A stretch of DNA of 43,630 bases, taken from Shigella phage Buco. The notes below the pieces were generated by a model. It did not search any database, was not told the DNA's origin, and was given only the letters and a program-made list of their open reading frames with translations. The stretch is taken from sequence record MK562503; one strand, given 5' to 3'. The position numbers and the translations under genes were made by a program. Below, in pieces: positions 6,656 to 17,879 of the stretch (positions within the stretch are counted from its first letter, which is position 1; each line of letters starts with the position of its first letter).

Positions 6656-6857
6656 GATTGAATATACAAGCGCACACCCTACTGTACAGGTAGGTATCCC
6701 GTTTACTTGGGGAATCAACGCTTACTGGTACATCCAAAGCTCCAATGGGTATTTTCTGTGTTTAAATGATGGTAAAGACGTAACGCAATCAATCGATCCG
6801 TACGAAATATTAAGTGAGCGTGGCTTCCGCTACGCTACGAGCATGGAGCTTAAGTAA
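6648..6857 (+). CDS. Hypothetical protein (69 aa)
   Basis: ORF-track entry; ggagc upstream. Confidence 0.5.
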   Translation: MAKIEYTSAHPTVQVGIPFTWGINAYWYIQSSNGYFLCLNDGKDVTQSIDPYEILSERGFRYATSMELK

Positions 6858-7720
6858 TGGCAGACGCCCCGTGGTTAGTAGCGTGCAAGCGCCTTGCCGT
6901 GGGGCAGACGGCCCGGTTCCGGTGCTGCGGCAGGACCCCTGCCGCGGTACTGTACAACAAGCCAGACAGCTGGGGCATGTTCTGCCACCGCTGCAAGAGC
7001 AGCCCGTACGAGAGGAAACAATACGTATCCCTGGTACAGCCCGAGATACTCCCGCGGGTGCTCCCTGCACCTGCACATCTAATCCGCGTTAGCCAGGCGA
7101 CCCCGGAGACGCGGGCACACGTATACAGTTTCATGGTCAGCAAAGGCTTGATGCCGGATATGCTGGAGGATGCATTATGGTCGGAAGAATTGAAGCGCCT
7201 GGTATTTCAAACCGGGCAAGGGACTTATCTAGCCAGGGCGATGTACGAGCATCAGCAGCCGAAGTGGTTGATGCTGGGCGGGGCGCAGAGCTATGCAATA
7301 GCACCTGCCCGGGTTGGAATTGCACAGACGAATGCACACACAACGCATTCAGCCCAAACCGCTGTCGCGGCACCTGCCAAGACACTGGATGCAGCTGCGG
7401 ACGCCGGATTGGTGGTGCTGACCGAGGATTACCTCAGCGCCCGGAAGGTGCAATGGACCAGCGAAAGGTACTCACCACAGGCTACGGTGTTAGCCGTGGC
7501 CTTACTTGGGACGAGGTTACAGCTCGCGTTAAAGAGCAAACTAGTGCAGGCAAACAAGCCCGTATTGTTGATGCTAGACGGGGATGCAGCCGGGGATGCC
7601 GGGACTGCAAGAATAAGTAAGGAGCTGCGCCCGTTCGTGCCGGTGCGGTCATATCAACTCCCTGGGCTAGACCCCAAGGATATGCAGGTACACCAGATTC
7701 TGGAGGGGTTAAATGTTTAA
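6857..7720 (+). CDS. DNA primase (zinc-binding plus TOPRIM-like)
   Basis: N-terminal Cys cluster CCGRTP...CHRC and acidic LMLDGDAAGDAG motif; sits immediately upstream of the helicase. Confidence 0.7.
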   Translation: MADAPWLVACKRLAVGQTARFRCCGRTPAAVLYNKPDSWGMFCHRCKSSPYERKQYVSLVQPEILPRVLPAPAHLIRVSQATPETRAHVYSFMVSKGLMPDMLEDALWSEELKRLVFQTGQGTYLARAMYEHQQPKWLMLGGAQSYAIAPARVGIAQTNAHTTHSAQTAVAAPAKTLDAAADAGLVVLTEDYLSARKVQWTSERYSPQATVLAVALLGTRLQLALKSKLVQANKPVLLMLDGDAAGDAGTARISKELRPFVPVRSYQLPGLDPKDMQVHQILEGLNV

Positions 7721-7910: not shown

Positions 7911-9194
7911 TTGGACTATATCGTAGTTAAGGCCATGTGTACCCGGAAGATATGGCACAGGCTGCGAGAGCAGATACCATCCAGTATGCTGGCACCAGAC
8001 ACGGTGTCTCTGCTGGGCTGGGTGGACCTGTACTGGTCAACGTACCAGGAGCATGCTGAGGTACACGCTGACGCATTCGAGAGCATGCTGAACCTCCGGG
8101 CCGGGGCAGCGCCGAAGGAGCAGATGGATATCCTGCGGCACATGTTCCGAACGGTGCAGCAGGTGCCAGATGATTCAGTGGTGGGTGTAGTACGCACCCT
8201 GAATGAGCTGGCCTACAGTGGGGAGGTGGCGGCGCTAACCCGTAGCTATCAGGACGGGGAGGAAGTAGACTTCATTGCGGAGATGAAGCGGCTTAACCGG
8301 AAGTACGGTGATGGCGCAGCAGTGCAAGACTCCTTGATGGAGTGGGAGTCTGGTTCAGTAGATGATATACTGGCGCAGACAGATGAATCAGGCGGGTTAA
8401 AGCTGAACGTGTTCGGCCAAACCCAGAGGAACATACGAGGTGCTAGAGGTGGTGACTGTATCGCTGTGGCTGCTCCTGTGGATGCTGGTAAAACTAGTCT
8501 CCTCGCTAGTATTGTTGTGGGTTTTGCTGAGCAGATGCAGCAACAGCCCGAGGTCTACGGAAGCCGCCCAATACTATGGCTGGTCAACGAATCCCTTGCG
8601 GCTCGCACTGTGCCGCGTATTTACCAAGCTGCAACGCACTGGACTCTACAGGAGATTCGAGAGCAGCATCAGCACGGTAAGTTTGCCCCGGCCTACCTTA
8701 ACAAGGTGGGTGCGTATGACCGTATTCGCGTTAAGAATGCGCACAGTCTCACTATGGCACAGATTGCAACCCTGATTGAGGAGATGAACCCTGCGGTGCT
8801 GGTCATCGACATGGTTGCAAACGTCCGGGGAGGAACCATGGAGACTGAGCACCAGAACCTGGAGGCGAAGTGGCAGGAGCTGCGCGTGCTTGGCTGTGAG
8901 CACGACTGCGTAATGCTCGGCACCATGCAGTTGTCTGCGGAGGGGTATGACATGCTGTACCCACCGCTGACCGCTATGAAGCAAAGCAAGATTGGCGTGC
9001 AGGGTGCGCTGGACTTAGCCCTGATGATGGGCCGGTTAGACCCGAGCACTAGGCCAGAGATGGTGAACGTACGCGGCATCAGTACACCTAAGAACAAGAT
9101 GGGCTTGTCTGGGTGCGAGTCGTACCTGCAATTCCAAGTGGACTTTCAGGGTGGGCGTTGTAAATTTGACGAAGGGGTAAGTGCTCATGGCTAA
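7911..9194 (+). CDS. Replicative DNA helicase (DnaB/T7 gp4 helicase-like)
   Basis: Walker A-like AAPVDAGKTS and Walker B-like LVIDMV; TTG start at 7911 after aaagaggag (alternative ATG at 7935). Confidence 0.75.
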   Translation: MDYIVVKAMCTRKIWHRLREQIPSSMLAPDTVSLLGWVDLYWSTYQEHAEVHADAFESMLNLRAGAAPKEQMDILRHMFRTVQQVPDDSVVGVVRTLNELAYSGEVAALTRSYQDGEEVDFIAEMKRLNRKYGDGAAVQDSLMEWESGSVDDILAQTDESGGLKLNVFGQTQRNIRGARGGDCIAVAAPVDAGKTSLLASIVVGFAEQMQQQPEVYGSRPILWLVNESLAARTVPRIYQAATHWTLQEIREQHQHGKFAPAYLNKVGAYDRIRVKNAHSLTMAQIATLIEEMNPAVLVIDMVANVRGGTMETEHQNLEAKWQELRVLGCEHDCVMLGTMQLSAEGYDMLYPPLTAMKQSKIGVQGALDLALMMGRLDPSTRPEMVNVRGISTPKNKMGLSGCESYLQFQVDFQGGRCKFDEGVSAHG

Positions 9195-9512
9195 CAAATT
9201 TAAAGTAGGTGACTTCGTGGTACGTACTGCTGACAACTGGGGGGTTGGTGCGCAAAGGCGACGTGTGGCAGGTCAGTGAGGTGGGGGGTATTCGGTAGCG
9301 GTATCAAACTCAAGGGTGATGCAGAGTGTACGTACGACCCGGCTAATTTCAGGTTGGCATATGACGGGGAACTATGCTCGGTCGTCGGTATGAGCTGGGA
9401 CTATGCGGAAGCACAGCGCCTACAGGACATTGCTAAGGCCGCAGTCAAAGCGTATAACGATTACGTCGGGCGTAAACCTGAAACGGTGTTCTTGAAGCTG
9501 GCTGATTACTAG
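9187..9512 (+). pseudogene. Frame-disrupted small gene (about 107 aa if two G6 tracts are read as G5)
   Basis: ATG at 9187 reads MANKFKVGDFVVRTADNWG, then the frame changes at GGGGGG 9239..9244 and again at GGGGGG 9283..9288. All three frames are protein-like in succession and the last runs to 9512. Confidence 0.45.
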
Positions 9513-9568
9513 GTACTTTTACAGGGCATCTCAGGGTGCCCTGTGTAGGTACATAGTGCGGAGGTTGT

Positions 9569-9727
9569 ATGTTACGAGCAAAAGATTTAACCATCGAGGA
9601 TGCCCAGGTTATTGGGTGGTACAGGGGCAAGCCCAGCTACATAGACCTGGCTAGGCTGACAGCATTTCACCTGGAGAGCTCGCACCTGATTGCTCTCCGG
9701 GCCATCGACAAAGCGCGGAGGGCTTGA
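9569..9727 (+). CDS. Hypothetical protein (52 aa)
   Basis: ATG preceded by gcggaggt; stop overlaps the start of the HNH gene. Confidence 0.45.
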   Translation: MLRAKDLTIEDAQVIGWYRGKPSYIDLARLTAFHLESSHLIALRAIDKARRA

Positions 9728-10161
9728 TGGAAGATTGCATTGACCACGGCCAATTGGGCGGGGTTGGCGGGTACGGAAGAGTGCGCATGGGTGGCCGGGT
9801 TACTGGTGCCCACCGCAGAGCTTATTGTGAGGCTAACGGTGTTTCGTTGGACGATATAAAGGGGAAGGTTGTGCGCCACCTTTGCGACAACCCACGGTGC
9901 ATTAATGCGGAGCATCTCGCCTTAGGCACCGCAAGCGACAACATGCAAGACCGCAACCGCGGAGTTAATAATCTGCTTGGAGAAAGGAACCCATCAGCCA
10001 AGTTAACAGCCTCGGATGTTGTGGCGATTAGGGCGGCATATAAATCAGGAGAGACTCAAGTATCTATAGCGCGCCGCCTGGGTTTACGTCAGGGCTACAT
10101 CTCAAAAATTATAACGGGGAGAATCTGGAATGAGCAGCAGCATTCTAATCACAGATTATGA
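9727..10161 (+). CDS. Free-standing HNH homing endonuclease with C-terminal helix-turn-helix
   Basis: HNH signature RHLCDNPRCINAEHLALGTASDNMQD, then a DNA-binding-like helical region (SAKLTASDVVAIRAAYKSGETQVSIARRLG). Confidence 0.75.
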   Translation: MEDCIDHGQLGGVGGYGRVRMGGRVTGAHRRAYCEANGVSLDDIKGKVVRHLCDNPRCINAEHLALGTASDNMQDRNRGVNNLLGERNPSAKLTASDVVAIRAAYKSGETQVSIARRLGLRQGYISKIITGRIWNEQQHSNHRL

Positions 10162-12505
10162 AACAGAAAATCATCCATACTATGGAGGGGTAGCTTCCCC
10201 ATACTGTCCTGACAATTACATCGTAGAATCCGCTTGGCGTATTGACCGCACAAATGATGATGGTACGGTCAACGTCGGGGACGTTGGGAGCGTTCGCTAC
10301 AATAGTCGTGAACAGTTCCTCGCTGCACCACCCTCTGAGTGGCTACCGATACCAAGCGATTGCTGGTTAATAGTGGCCCATAACGCGGCTTACGAAATCA
10401 GTTGGTTTTTATCCTTTGCCCGTAAAGAATTTGAGGACTTCTTAAAGAGGGGTGGGCGTGTCTTTGACACAATGCACGGAGAGTACATTGCCACGGACTT
10501 CCAGAGTATGTATCCGAGCTTGGATGAGACGGCTCCTAAGTATGGTGGTACGCACAAGGTAGACGGGGTAAAGATTCTGTGGGAACAGGGTGTGCTCACC
10601 TCGCAGATTGACCCGATGCTATTGCATGACTACCTGGTGAACGGGGATATCCCGAACACCGCGCTGTGCTTCTACGGCCAGTGTGCTATCTTTGCTGAGC
10701 GCGGGCAGATGCAAATGGTCTGGGAGCGTATGGACGCTGTGCTGGCCTGGGCCTACTGTGAGTTCTTCGGATTGTATGTGAACATGCCGGTAGCCCGGGC
10801 GAACCAGGCGGAGCAGGAGCAGCGCATTCAGGAGCTGAAAGAGGAGCTGGGTAAGTACCTGCCGGAACTGCCGGAGACGTTCGAGTTCAACTGGGGTAGT
10901 AACTTCCATATGTCAGCGCTGGTATACGGCGGACCTATCCGGTACAAGCGCAAGGTCCCGTATGACCCGCCGCAGTATGTAAAAGCCGACTATTATAAGC
11001 TCAATAACGGAGAGCTTATAGAGGTAGATGATTGGGACATAGAGGCGTTGGATACTCGGCTAGTGCAGGAGGGCCTGTACCGCGAGGTTTATAGGGCAGG
11101 TAAGAACAAGGGTCGGCCTAAAGTCTTCCGCGCCGACACCGAGGAGGAGAAGCTTAAGTGGGACGACGCTATCTACACCTTCCCGGGCATCGTCAAGATA
11201 GCAGAGTTGCCAGAGCACATCCGGGAGAAGTACAGCGACCGTGGCGAGTTCAGAGGGGCCCAGACACTACCCGACGGCAGTCCGATATACAGTACCAGCG
11301 GGGACGCCATGAACGGCCTGGCGGCCCAGGGGCACGCCTTCGCTAAGTTGGTGAACGAGCTGGCCGGGTTAGAGAAAGACACCGGCACCTACTACCTACG
11401 CACGGAGTACAACAAAGATGGCTCAGTCAAGAAAGTGTCCGGAATGCTCCAGTACGTTATCCCTCAGTCAGGAGACGGGAGCGGCATTATCCATCACAGA
11501 CTCAACACTTGCAGCACTGTCACTGGACGTCTCTCTGCTTCTAACCCAAATCTCCAGAACCTCCCACGAGACGGCACGAGTCGAGTTAAACAAATGTTTA
11601 CTAGCCGTTTCGGCGACGAGGGGCGGATTACAGAAGTCGACTACTCGGCTCTTGAAGTTGTTATGTCCTGTGTGCACACCGGGGACCTCAAGCTCCTAGG
11701 TCTGCTGCTGGATGGTACGGACATGCACTGTTACCGGTTAGCCTTTAAGGAGGGCAAGACCTATGATGAAGTGTACCACCTCTGTCACTCGGATGAGGTT
11801 CCGGTTGAGGTCCATAAACTTTGGAAAGCCATGCGTACCGAGATTAAACCTCCTAGCTTTGCTGCTCAGTACGGCGCTACGGCTAAAGGTATCGCATTCG
11901 CTACCGGATGTACCGTGGAGTATGCCCAGTCATTCCTTGATAATGAAGCCGCACTATTCCCTACCACCATTGGCTTTCGTGATGTAGTCCGGGAGGAAGT
12001 AGAGCGGACCGGGGCAGAGGGGCCAATGTACCGAGAACAGGGTGATGATGGGCAGTGGAGACTGTACCGCATCGGGCACTGGCGTAGCCCCGCCGGTACA
12101 CGCTACAGCTTCCGTCAGAAGCTGCAATGGAAAGCCCCGCCGGGAGGTGGCCGCAAGGTTCAGGTAATGGACTACAAGGGCACAGAGATTGCAAACTACT
12201 GGTGCCAGGGGGAGGCGTTCTTCCTGATGCTGGTGGCCGCCGGGCAGGTTATGCGGGCAATGGTGCAGCGCGACTGGTTCGATGGGCAGGTGTGTCTGAT
12301 TACGAACGTGCACGATGCGTTGTATCTGGACAGCGCCAATCCGGAGGTAGGCCGGGAAGCGAGCCTGTTGGTTAAGCAGTGTATGGAGGATGCGCCTAAA
12401 CGTATCCATGCCCTGTGGCCGGACTACGGCATCATTGGGCAGGTCCCGTTCCCGGCGGAAGCTGAGATGGGTTTGAGCATGTACAGTAAGGAGAAGATTC
12501 AATGA
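10130..12505 (+). CDS. Family A DNA polymerase with N-terminal 3'-5' exonuclease domain
   Basis: 791 aa; exo motif ILITDYETE, then DYSALEVV, RTEIKPPSFAAQYG and VHDALYLD polymerase motifs; ggggaga upstream. Confidence 0.9.
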   Translation: MSSSILITDYETENHPYYGGVASPYCPDNYIVESAWRIDRTNDDGTVNVGDVGSVRYNSREQFLAAPPSEWLPIPSDCWLIVAHNAAYEISWFLSFARKEFEDFLKRGGRVFDTMHGEYIATDFQSMYPSLDETAPKYGGTHKVDGVKILWEQGVLTSQIDPMLLHDYLVNGDIPNTALCFYGQCAIFAERGQMQMVWERMDAVLAWAYCEFFGLYVNMPVARANQAEQEQRIQELKEELGKYLPELPETFEFNWGSNFHMSALVYGGPIRYKRKVPYDPPQYVKADYYKLNNGELIEVDDWDIEALDTRLVQEGLYREVYRAGKNKGRPKVFRADTEEEKLKWDDAIYTFPGIVKIAELPEHIREKYSDRGEFRGAQTLPDGSPIYSTSGDAMNGLAAQGHAFAKLVNELAGLEKDTGTYYLRTEYNKDGSVKKVSGMLQYVIPQSGDGSGIIHHRLNTCSTVTGRLSASNPNLQNLPRDGTSRVKQMFTSRFGDEGRITEVDYSALEVVMSCVHTGDLKLLGLLLDGTDMHCYRLAFKEGKTYDEVYHLCHSDEVPVEVHKLWKAMRTEIKPPSFAAQYGATAKGIAFATGCTVEYAQSFLDNEAALFPTTIGFRDVVREEVERTGAEGPMYREQGDDGQWRLYRIGHWRSPAGTRYSFRQKLQWKAPPGGGRKVQVMDYKGTEIANYWCQGEAFFLMLVAAGQVMRAMVQRDWFDGQVCLITNVHDALYLDSANPEVGREASLLVKQCMEDAPKRIHALWPDYGIIGQVPFPAEAEMGLSMYSKEKIQ

Positions 12506-15903: not shown

Positions 15904-16084
15904 ACTATCTATTCTTTTTGCTGCTCCAGCAGGGCTGCTTATGGCCACCGGTATTGTTCTACTGGGCCTGGGCGGCCTGATTGCTGGGCAAGGTTTCTTA
16001 CGCCCCACTCGTATCCTTTCAGAAGAATTCCGAGATGCCTTGGTCACAGCCAAGGCGCGCCTCCTGGCGAGTAGGCGCAAATGA
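15893..16084 (+). CDS. Small membrane protein (63 aa)
   Basis: ATG at 15893 after caggag; hydrophobic core LSILFAAPAGLLMATGIVLLGLGGLIAG. Confidence 0.45.
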   Translation: MRSKLSILFAAPAGLLMATGIVLLGLGGLIAGQGFLRPTRILSEEFRDALVTAKARLLASRRK

Positions 16085-17025
16085 TTATCCGGGGGCTGGA
16101 CCTAGCGAATCTGGGGGAACAGCTAGCCCCCGCCAACCCCGGTAAGGTATTGCTGCTGGACGGGGACTTCCTGGTGTACAAGGCAGCGGCAACTGTCAAG
16201 ACCCTGCCTACCGCTATCCGGCGCTTCTACCAGCTGGTGCTGGAGGAGATGTTTCTGGTTGGGGTGCAAGAGTGCTTCGTGTATCTGACTCCCACTGGGT
16301 GTGCTAAGTGCAACCGCTGGCATCTGCCGACGGTGAAGCCCTACCAGGGACAGCGGGCTAATCGCGTGGAGCTGCCCCTTAAGGGACCTCTGAAAACGCA
16401 CCTATTGAATAACCCGGACGAGTACAGCAGCCAGAATATTCAGGTAGTCGGGAGCATGTTCTATGAAGCTGATGACCTGATAGTAATGGACTCCTACGCT
16501 TTCAAGGAGCGCTGCATCGTTAGCTCCGGGGATAAGGACCTATGGTTAAGTCCCTGGGCCAGGATGAATGCGGAGACCGGAGAGGTCTGGGCACCGCTGG
16601 AGGACTCCTACGGCTGGATTGAGTGGGATGAGACCAAGGCTATGCCTGTGCGTGGGCACGGTCTGAAGTTCTTCTGGTGGCAAATGCTGGCTGGGGATGA
16701 GGCAGATAACATCAAAGGCATCCGTACGCTGCATGGGCGGCTCTGTGGCAAGGCTACGGCCTTCCAGGCTATCAACCCTATGGCTACAGCGGACGAGGCC
16801 GCAGAGCTCGTTATAGGAGCTTACGCAGCAATCAATCAAGACCCCTTAGCTGAGGCTGAGGCACTGTTTCTGAGACGGCATGAGCGGGACTCTGGTTATG
16901 AGTACATTATGTCGGTGCTGGCTAATCCTGCTTACAGGGACTGGCTCACCAGTCTCAGGGATTATCACACACAGCACATTCAGTATGTGCAGGAGCTTTC
17001 GCTTTATGGCATCGAAGAAACGTAG
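16081..17025 (+). CDS. 5'-3' exonuclease (FEN/T7 gene 6-like)
   Basis: N-terminal LLDGDFLVYKAA, acidic GDKDL, and GDEADNIKGI helix-hairpin-helix-like motif. Confidence 0.75.
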   Translation: MIIRGLDLANLGEQLAPANPGKVLLLDGDFLVYKAAATVKTLPTAIRRFYQLVLEEMFLVGVQECFVYLTPTGCAKCNRWHLPTVKPYQGQRANRVELPLKGPLKTHLLNNPDEYSSQNIQVVGSMFYEADDLIVMDSYAFKERCIVSSGDKDLWLSPWARMNAETGEVWAPLEDSYGWIEWDETKAMPVRGHGLKFFWWQMLAGDEADNIKGIRTLHGRLCGKATAFQAINPMATADEAAELVIGAYAAINQDPLAEAEALFLRRHERDSGYEYIMSVLANPAYRDWLTSLRDYHTQHIQYVQELSLYGIEET

Positions 17026-17212: not shown

Positions 17213-17457
17213 TTAAGCACGGCGACACCTATCGAGTAGATATTGTACGTCCTTACATAGCAAAACCTAATGCACCTGGAATCTCCTATGCAGGTGACTT
17301 TCCTTACTGGTGGCCGCACTCCTGGTCTGTAAACTATGGCGGATATGTACTCTTCTTTGCAGCCAAACCTACGCGTAAGCAAATTCGTAAGATGGTGAGA
17401 TGGGTGCGGGACAGTTTACCATATGATAAACATCCGGAGGATGCGCCGTGGCATTAA
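17206..17457 (+). CDS. Hypothetical protein (83 aa)
   Basis: ORF-track entry; ggggaga upstream. Confidence 0.5.
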   Translation: MLIKHGDTYRVDIVRPYIAKPNAPGISYAGDFPYWWPHSWSVNYGGYVLFFAAKPTRKQIRKMVRWVRDSLPYDKHPEDAPWH

Positions 17458-17879
17458 GGAAGGTTACCCGGGGTCAAATCCGGGCCGTAGCAATGCGCCT
17501 GGCAAAGGAGCAGGGTGGGGTGTGCCCCCTCTGCTTTGAGCCTTTGGACTTCTCAATCAAGGGGGTGACTGGTGATTCAGTTGTCGTCGACCACTGCCAT
17601 ATCACGGGCAGAATCCGAGGTGCTCTGCACCGCTCATGTAATGGCGGGGAGGGTAAAGTGGCCTCCGCCGCTGGGCGGTGGGTGGTGGGTAGTATGCAGT
17701 CTACTGCTGCTATTGCTACTGCGCTACGTCGTATCGCTGACTACCTAGACAAGGAACCGTCGGACCTGGTATACTATACGCATAAAACGCCGGAAGAAGC
17801 TGCTGCCGCATTGAAGATGCGCGCGCGCCGCCGCCGAGTCCAACGTAAGGCAAGAGAGGTTATCAAGAGTGTTCAATAA
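17448..17879 (+). CDS. Endonuclease VII-family resolvase
   Basis: CPLC...DHCHITGRIRGALHRSCNGGEG matches the T4 endonuclease VII zinc/His-Me signature; GTG start after ggagga. Confidence 0.75.
   Translation: MALRKVTRGQIRAVAMRLAKEQGGVCPLCFEPLDFSIKGVTGDSVVVDHCHITGRIRGALHRSCNGGEGKVASAAGRWVVGSMQSTAAIATALRRIADYLDKEPSDLVYYTHKTPEEAAAALKMRARRRRVQRKAREVIKSVQ

Follow-up and report, generated by a model that had tools for sequence, protein, structure and literature searches.

The ORF at 9727-10161 on the + strand of the window, by which we mean the whole 43,630-nt stretch of DNA analysed, very likely encodes a free-standing HNH_3 homing endonuclease that would spread by break repair together with the 5′ tract of the adjoining DNA polymerase gene, and that would be unnecessary for the phage. 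The element is of a known and ordinary kind, which the initial annotation recognized correctly. Its proposal of a homing endonuclease is borne out by a free-standing HNH gene that lies beside the polymerase gene, occurs sporadically among relatives and is linked to a block of ~350 nt, whereas its suggestion of collateral damage to a neighbouring gene is not supported.

The window is the record MK562503 of Shigella phage Buco (Bucovirus buco, Slopekvirinae; PMC11522302). Its ends, at 1-127 and 43504-43630, are perfect 127-nt direct terminal repeats, indicating that it represents the complete linear phage genome. All large genes, including those encoding the T7-type RNA polymerase, the large terminase and the tailspike, are located on the + strand. 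Of the genomes in the phage collection, that of Cronobacter phage Peggy is the nearest, with an identity of 81.5% at the nucleotide level over the matched replication region and 82.4% for the polymerase protein. Upstream of the HNH gene lie the primase (6857-7720) and DnaB-like helicase (7911-9194) genes, followed by a frame-disrupted homologue of Peggy_150 (phrog_19629; 9187-9512, + strand), which is outside the HNH element, an intergenic stem-loop (9507-9558) and a conserved 52-aa gene (phrog_4548; 9569-9727, + strand) that forms the left flank of the HNH gene and shares 71% of its residues with Peggy_170. On the other side, the element adjoins the essential gene of a family A DNA polymerase of 791 residues (10130-12505, + strand). 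A tblastn search with the HNH protein detected no other HNH copy in the window, and Pfam scans of sixteen other window ORFs found no HNH or other homing endonuclease domain, the only nuclease of note being endonuclease VII. Scans of positions 9000-10400 for sigma-70 promoters and intrinsic terminators gave no matches.

The HNH ORF described in the initial annotation is confirmed. It comprises 144 codons plus a stop, with a significant match to the Pfam family HNH_3 and a C-terminal domain of three helices. An identical protein of Buco is already named "endonuclease" in the public record, and orthologues already carry HNH or homing endonuclease annotations. An in-frame TTG lies at 9724, but it is the ATG at 9727 that follows GGAGG (9717-9721) and shares bases with the TGA closing the upstream 52-aa gene. 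The score against HNH_3 (PF13392) is 39.2 bits at a cut-off of 24.8 (E 5.4e-10), and the PHROG HNH families phrog_6254 and phrog_59 are matched with E-values of about 2e-24; the Pfam matches to zf-His_Me_endon and HTH_3 are sub-threshold. In the AlphaFold model (pLDDT 83), a core of β-hairpin and helix is followed by the C-terminal three-helix domain and a disordered tail. The modelled strands 48-51 and 64-67 and the helix 69-78 have a pLDDT of about 90, compared to values below 50 for residues 139-144, with an average of 36 for the final four-residue block. The HNH_3 or His-Me-finger nuclease core (residues 27-74; 9805-9948) is defined by the model, by the invariant residues and by matches to I-HmuI and I-PpoI. 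These matches to solved homing endonucleases are weak, with a Foldseek E-value of 0.035 and an E-value of 0.12 in a phmmer search against the PDB. In an alignment of 31 homologues, the residues C4, R30, H51, C53, C58, H63, G67, N72 and D75 are invariant, and all are kept in Buco; they include the catalytic His (H51) and the metal-binding Asn (N72) of a ββα-metal finger. The three-helix domain (residues 95-130; 10009-10116) is a predicted helix-turn-helix (HTH) DNA-binding domain, and the segment of residues 86-137 matches several PHROG families of HTH or DNA-binding proteins. The protein has the two-domain plan of I-HmuI, in which a nuclease domain precedes a C-terminal HTH.

Between Buco and the orthologues, pN is 0.22-0.27 and pS is 0.85-0.96; because of saturation at synonymous sites, these comparisons are given as pN and pS rather than as dN/dS. 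Among the Klebsiella-phage copies with an estimable dS, dN/dS ranges from 0.03 to 0.45. These values point to purifying selection on the HNH protein, which counts against a decaying relic. The tblastn coverage of many orthologues, confined to residues 28-144, had raised the possibility of N-terminal truncation; this was rejected, as these orthologues are complete proteins whose N-terminal segment is divergent. Across the whole window, scans for Rfam families and tRNAs were empty. Given the lack of an Rfam match, the position of the ORF between two intact genes and the uninterrupted polymerase gene, the HNH gene is free-standing and an intron context is excluded; the ORF does not belong to the intron- or intein-encoded homing endonucleases.

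Comparison of the loci revealed a fixed docking site at the 3′ end of the 52-aa gene. This end (GGAGGGCTTGA) provides a Shine-Dalgarno sequence and the point at which each alternative cassette starts: the same GGAGGGCTnAnTGGAA followed by ATG precedes the HNH gene, the polymerase gene, SU503_17 or Peggy_180, depending on the phage. The junction rule of GGAGGGCTnAnTGGAA and ATG applies to the examined relatives that retain the 52-aa gene, which is missing from BUCT86 and VLC6. The slot is empty in KpV475 and PAS7, in which the polymerase gene starts at the docking ATG, and is occupied in Peggy by a 58-aa DUF7336 gene and in SU503 by a 118-aa ORF, relatives of which are present in VLC3 (123 aa) and KMI5 (125 aa). 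Judged from these junctions, the HNH gene is placed exactly at the position of the polymerase start codon of the empty-site phages. More generally, the helicase-to-polymerase interval is a hot spot of cassettes. In this interval Peggy has two such genes (L001 3174-3587 and 3732-3908), an extra one of 137 aa without a counterpart in the window and the 58-aa DUF7336 gene in the HNH slot, and the 118-125-aa family of SU503, KMI5 and VLC3, to which no function is assigned, is also located here (L012 2255-2611; L009 2249-2626).

At its 3′ end, the HNH gene overlaps the polymerase gene by 32 nt, from the polymerase ATG at 10130 to the HNH end at 10161, in full agreement with the initial annotation. 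The HNH reading frame is not closed ahead of the polymerase gene, and the last ten HNH codons, encoding the tail NEQQHSNHRL (10129-10161 with the stop), are the polymerase codons 1-10 read in the -1 frame. According to the homologue alignment, family members at other sites lack a tail of this type and finish near ...GRxW. The sequence GGGGAG (10116-10121, + strand), which lies within the HNH coding sequence 8 nt before the polymerase ATG and is kept in orthologues, is the putative ribosome-binding site of the polymerase. The pattern AAGGGGAG(A/G)GTATGGA-ATG occurs, KX1 excepted, in four of five further HNH-bearing loci that were compared and that share the 32-nt overlap. An overlap of 32 nt is annotated in VLCpiA1a, phi1_146051, BUCT86 and Henu2_3, and one of 8 nt, as annotated, in KX1. 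By the predicted signals, the HNH gene uses the ribosome-binding site at the end of the 52-aa gene and brings a new one for the polymerase in its own 3′ end.

The initial annotation had proposed comparing the helicase-to-polymerase interval among related phages, with universal presence and conserved boundaries counting against its reading. Instead, neither Peggy nor most other relatives have the HNH gene, and KpV475 and PAS7 have an empty slot. A tblastn search identified HNH orthologues with 60-80% identity at the protein level in 34 phage records, nearly all of Klebsiella Drulisvirus. Set against 318 records whose polymerase is at least 60% identical to that of Buco, only about 11% carry the gene, and it is therefore not universally present. 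The orthologues occupy the same slot in the loci examined, and Peggy, the nearest relative (polymerase 82% identical at the protein level) and the only close HNH-less relative available for comparison, is without it. The HNH gene is accordingly present or absent at one fixed site of otherwise collinear relatives. Moreover, a second HNH lineage, about 42% identical to the Buco protein, resides in the same slot in 12 further records, including VLC3, VLC4, VAC25, KPR2 and RCIP0039. Metagenomic homologues with 50-59% identity also lie directly upstream of a polymerase gene, and one homologue with 47% identity lies directly downstream of a polymerase gene that has another HNH gene upstream. On a metagenomic contig (L020 153-3432) the polymerase gene is flanked by HNH genes on both sides. 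PAS7 (L014 1971-2396, 2598-4959 and 4952-5455), whose polymerase is annotated as two overlapping CDSs, has different HNH genes after the helicase and directly after the polymerase.

Presence of the HNH gene is completely linked to a diverged 5′ haplotype of the polymerase gene. Over residues 1-150, the Buco polymerase aligns without gaps to those of HNH-bearing Klebsiella phages at 87-88% identity, compared to 73-75% with a 4-residue indel for Peggy and other HNH-less phages, although Peggy is the nearest over the whole protein. With polymerase residues 1-100 as the tblastn query, the best 28 records (85-86%) all carry the HNH gene, and the next class is at 76%; the linkage is complete in these 28 of 28 top matches, as expected for co-inheritance of flanking sequence. 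In a nucleotide alignment of four HNH-bearing against five HNH-less polymerase genes, 61 differences are fixed between the two groups; they are confined to nt 5-350, and the other ~2,000 nt contain none. At these sites Buco has the HNH-bearing state in 37, the HNH-less state in 9 and neither in 15, and the last three informative sites (348-350) are of the HNH-less type. The identity between Buco and Peggy is 59% over nt 1-350 and 79% over the remainder; in a sliding comparison, it returns to 75-86% from about position 10,450. The linked haplotype block of ~350 nt (10130-10480, + strand) would represent a co-conversion tract or a cleavage-resistant allele.

The Klebsiella phages display the same discordance between block and backbone. 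Over polymerase nt 1-350, the HNH-bearing phages are 95-99% alike and only about 61% identical to HNH-less phages. From nt 351 to the end, by contrast, the HNH-bearing F19 and the HNH-less KpV475 are 94% identical, as are VLCpiA1a (with HNH) and KMI5 (without) at 91%, whereas the two HNH-bearing phages VLCpiA1a and F19 share only 81%. The near-isogenic F19 and KpV475 are 95-98% identical through the helicase and 52-aa genes, after which F19 has a clean 418-nt insertion; a sliding comparison then gives ~330 nt at 47-77%, followed by 90-99%. This discordance of block and backbone identities argues that the mobile unit is the HNH gene together with the first ~350 nt of the polymerase gene, on unrelated backbones. 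In Buco, the HNH gene and the block are 72-73% identical at the nucleotide level to the Klebsiella-phage version, a divergence about equal to that of the backbone, and the HNH protein, with 63-68% identity to its nearest orthologues, has diverged like the rest of the genome. Recent mobility in the Buco lineage is thus not indicated. Polymerase-based phylogenies of Buco- or Drulisvirus-type phages would be distorted in the first ~350 nt.

The 5′ ends of the HNH genes retain what look like insertion scars. In F19, SRD2021 and BHU3 the HNH gene begins with ATGACA, the pair of codons that opens the HNH-less polymerase (MTT...), and in VLCpiA1a it begins with ATGGAAATGACA. In Buco these six bases of ATGACA have been lost and the gene starts at an upstream ATG. 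The second-lineage HNH gene of VLC3 (L015 1746-2201; also L016) is identical over its first 34 nt to the start of the HNH-less polymerase (MTTSIMHIDLE), after which the HNH protein follows. As far as sequence comparison can tell, these polymerase-start remnants at the HNH N-termini show that the HNH-less arrangement came first, and that each HNH lineage would have entered within the first codons of the polymerase, bringing a replacement 5′ end. The second lineage is linked to a third N-terminal allele of the polymerase (VSSILFTDYETENH), and KX1 combines a Buco-type HNH gene with this third allele (VSSILFTDYETENH). The linkage of a recoded polymerase 5′ end and the scars at the start codon were not found described, and they fit standard expectations.

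The disrupted neighbour is better explained otherwise than by the insertion. The segment 9187-9512 is homologous to Peggy_150, KMI5_21 and KX1_40, and is read across three successive frames, both switches being +1 shifts at runs of six G (9239-9244 and 9283-9288). If each run is shortened by one G, an ORF of 107 aa results, which can be aligned with the family. The lesion that the initial annotation had tentatively attributed to insertion of the HNH gene lies 440-490 nt upstream of it, with a hairpin and the intact 52-aa gene between them, and the left flank is Peggy-like and outside the exchanged block. The two frameshifts are more simply explained by miscalled homopolymers or by ordinary slippage.

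We propose a process for the spread of the element in which, during a mixed infection, the HNH enzyme would recognize an allele without the HNH gene and nick or cut it at, or close to, the polymerase 5′ end. Monomeric HNH enzymes of the I-HmuI-like type have one active site, and nicking is for this reason the more probable reaction. Phage recombination would then repair the break with the HNH-bearing genome as the template, to which the phage endonuclease VII (17448-17879, found in the Pfam scan) and a putative, weakly supported 5′-3′ exonuclease (16081-17025) could contribute. The repair would copy the HNH gene and the adjoining polymerase 5′ tract, whose substitutions would make the carrier resistant to cleavage; over its first 30 nt the HNH-linked tract differs in 12, and the HNH-less start sequence is absent from the window. 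The diverged block of ~350 nt is, by this account, the expected footprint of homing, and the HNH gene would serve no necessary function of the phage. Comparison provides the domain plan, the coupling to the 52-aa gene, the embedded ribosome-binding site, the sporadic distribution and the diverged linked flank, from which we infer the endonuclease activity, the target site and the mobility of the protein. Literature searches turned up no study, biochemical or genetic, in which cleavage, the target site or biased inheritance had been tested for the Buco HNH protein or its orthologues. The individual steps are modelled on the biology of T4 Seg, MobE and I-HmuI (PMC2988022, PMC2790892, PMC10448857).

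Among known systems, the closest in domain plan is I-HmuI of Bacillus phage SPO1 (PDB 1U3E), together with its relatives I-HmuII, I-BasI and I-TwoI. I-HmuI resides in a group I intron inside a polymerase gene, whereas the Buco HNH gene is free-standing and upstream of the polymerase, with no intron according to the Rfam search. The sequence identity between the two proteins is only about 17%, and the Buco family possesses an additional invariant Cys/His set (C4, C53, C58 and H63) that resembles the zinc loop of I-PpoI. I-PfoP3I of the T7-like cyanophage Pf-WMP3 (PMC3428280) is likewise intron-encoded, in contrast to the free-standing Buco gene. Similar in genomic setting are MobE and the Seg proteins of T4, which are free-standing and located between or beside essential genes of nucleotide metabolism and replication, as is the Buco gene (PMC2790892, PMC2988022). 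Their spread relies on break repair, during which flanking markers are co-converted, and is termed "intronless homing" (PMC2790892, PMC2988022). MobE belongs to the HNH family, as does the Buco protein; however, the T4 enzymes come from a different phage group and from different HNH or GIY-YIG subfamilies. Compared to MobE and Seg, the Buco element overlaps the start of its neighbour and supplies its ribosome-binding site, and the putatively resistant linked tract is the 5′ end of that neighbour.

In a survey of ICP1 and other phages (Barth, Dunham & Seed 2023; PMC10448857), HNH homing endonuclease genes were frequent neighbours of DNA polymerase genes, at 29% of the neighbourhoods analysed, and such genes mark the edges of exchanged segments, or recombination boundaries (PMC10448857). 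The IPA-HNH and T5orf172 genes of that study display the same pattern as the Buco locus, at the side of a polymerase and at a recombination boundary (PMC10448857), but the IPA-HNH proteins have an AP2 DNA-binding domain where the Buco protein has an HTH tail. The Klebsiella Drulisvirus orthologues, including F19, VLCpiA1a, BUCT86 ORF2, Henu2_3 gp11 and P929, are 63-68% identical to the Buco protein, occupy the same slot, mostly with the 32-nt overlap, and share the linked polymerase 5′ haplotype; they are known by annotation alone. In contrast to them, the Buco gene has neither the ATGACA remnant nor the STCRGK insertion near the N-terminus.

Other explanations account for parts of these observations. 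The nuclease may be kept as a weapon of interference competition that damages the polymerase gene of co-infecting HNH-less relatives and cuts their yield, an explanation that overlaps with homing mechanistically and differs only in what maintains the gene. An intron endonuclease of phage PhiPA3 is reported to interfere with a co-infecting virus (PMC11620839), which offers a precedent, and both the purifying selection on the HNH protein and a target neighbourhood in an essential replication gene would fit. The sequence data do not separate such a weapon from plain homing, and the presence of the gene in only about 11% of relatives speaks against a strong general advantage, and we regard this explanation as unlikely. 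Still less probable is an inactive or decaying copy in Buco, perhaps binding DNA only, that is kept since the ribosome-binding site of the polymerase lies inside it. The Shine-Dalgarno sequence (10116-10121) and the start of the polymerase within the HNH ORF would explain such retention, the closest orthologue is only 68% identical with signs of recent transfer not found, and an imprecise deletion in SRD2021 took polymerase codons 1-51 along. Against this, the ORF is intact, all family-invariant residues are kept, including the catalytic H51, N72 and the Cys/His set, and pN is far below pS in comparison with the orthologues.

HNH proteins with roles in packaging or in the degradation of host DNA occur in other phages, and the gene lies within a DNA-metabolism operon, so that a housekeeping nuclease such as a terminase-associated packaging factor (HK97 gp74-like) or an enzyme for host-DNA degradation might be considered. 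A required enzyme would hardly be missing from Peggy and about 89% of relatives; moreover, the gene is 27 kb from the T7-type large terminase gene (37014-38891), which does not match a terminase-associated HNH protein, and the combination of an HTH tail with an I-HmuI-like plan suggests that DNA is recognized in a sequence-specific manner. We consider such a role highly improbable. The faintest probability falls to a chance ORF or a mis-called upstream extension of the polymerase gene, in favour of which there is nothing but the overlap with the polymerase start. A chance ORF is refuted by the Pfam and PHROG matches, the conserved orthologues and a pN much lower than pS, together with the confidently modelled fold, and an extension is contradicted by the polymerase N-terminus, which aligns from its own ATG in all relatives.

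Within the homing interpretation, a more far-reaching version is conceivable, which we put forward as a tentative and rather doubtful extension. The element would have taken over the original start of the polymerase and reissued the gene with its own ribosome-binding site and ~115 recoded N-terminal codons, including the region of the Exo I motif, such that its loss would need precise excision, an addiction-like lock; in addition, at least two HNH lineages with recoded alleles of their own would compete for the same bases. If true, the polymerase start would be a natural battleground for rival gene drives, or for interference competition, within the Slopekvirinae. The locus is a very clean natural case of a free-standing homing endonuclease gene that carries a recoded piece of an essential neighbour, and the near-isogenic pair of F19 and KpV475, with and without the gene, makes the target site and the drive easily testable. 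As the HNH gene appears dispensable, it might also offer a safe engineering site in Buco- or Drulisvirus-type therapeutic phages, although the practical value is small. In one study, insertion downstream of a homing endonuclease gene gave the best reporter signal (PMC8069110).

Several further features of this region were observed. The stem-loop at 9507-9558 is strong, with a folding energy of -31.1 kcal/mol (z-score of -5.7 against shuffled sequences), and its central stem is flanked on both sides by TAGGTAC. It has no U-tract and may be an RNase III site or a signal for the phage polymerase. A similar hairpin together with TGTAGGTACA lies just upstream of the polymerase gene in VLC6. In Buco, TGTAGGTACA also lies beside the hairpin, but a role as a phage promoter was discounted, as the motif is not enriched in the genome. 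No resemblance was seen to the promoter annotated in KpV475.

Two relatives have unusual polymerase genes. Compared to F19, SRD2021 (L006 2405-2900) has a 217-nt deletion, through which the HTH region of the HNH gene is lost together with codons 1-51 of the polymerase and their Exo I D-x-E motif, and HNH residues 1-118 continue in frame into the polymerase. Either the record contains an assembly error, or the phage makes a viable HNH::polymerase fusion that lacks some of its proofreading domain. In BUCT86, a helicase fragment of 849 nt (AAA_25/DnaB_C; L004 1262-2110) splits the polymerase at residue 137, and the record begins in the middle of the helicase gene; the fragment is more suggestive of mis-assembly or of an artefact of permutation than of a mobile element.

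The polymerase is also mosaic downstream of the linked block. Over residues 451-525 (11480-11700), Buco is 90-93% identical to VLCpiA1a and KMI5 and 72-76% identical to other Klebsiella phages, regardless of HNH status, which indicates that recombination here needs no nuclease. In addition, the segment of residues about 276-350 (about 10955-11180) is hypervariable, with only 3-17% identity to every relative, including Peggy, over about 50 residues. It is flanked by well-conserved sequence and probably corresponds to a surface insertion of variable sequence that separates the exonuclease domain from the polymerase domain.
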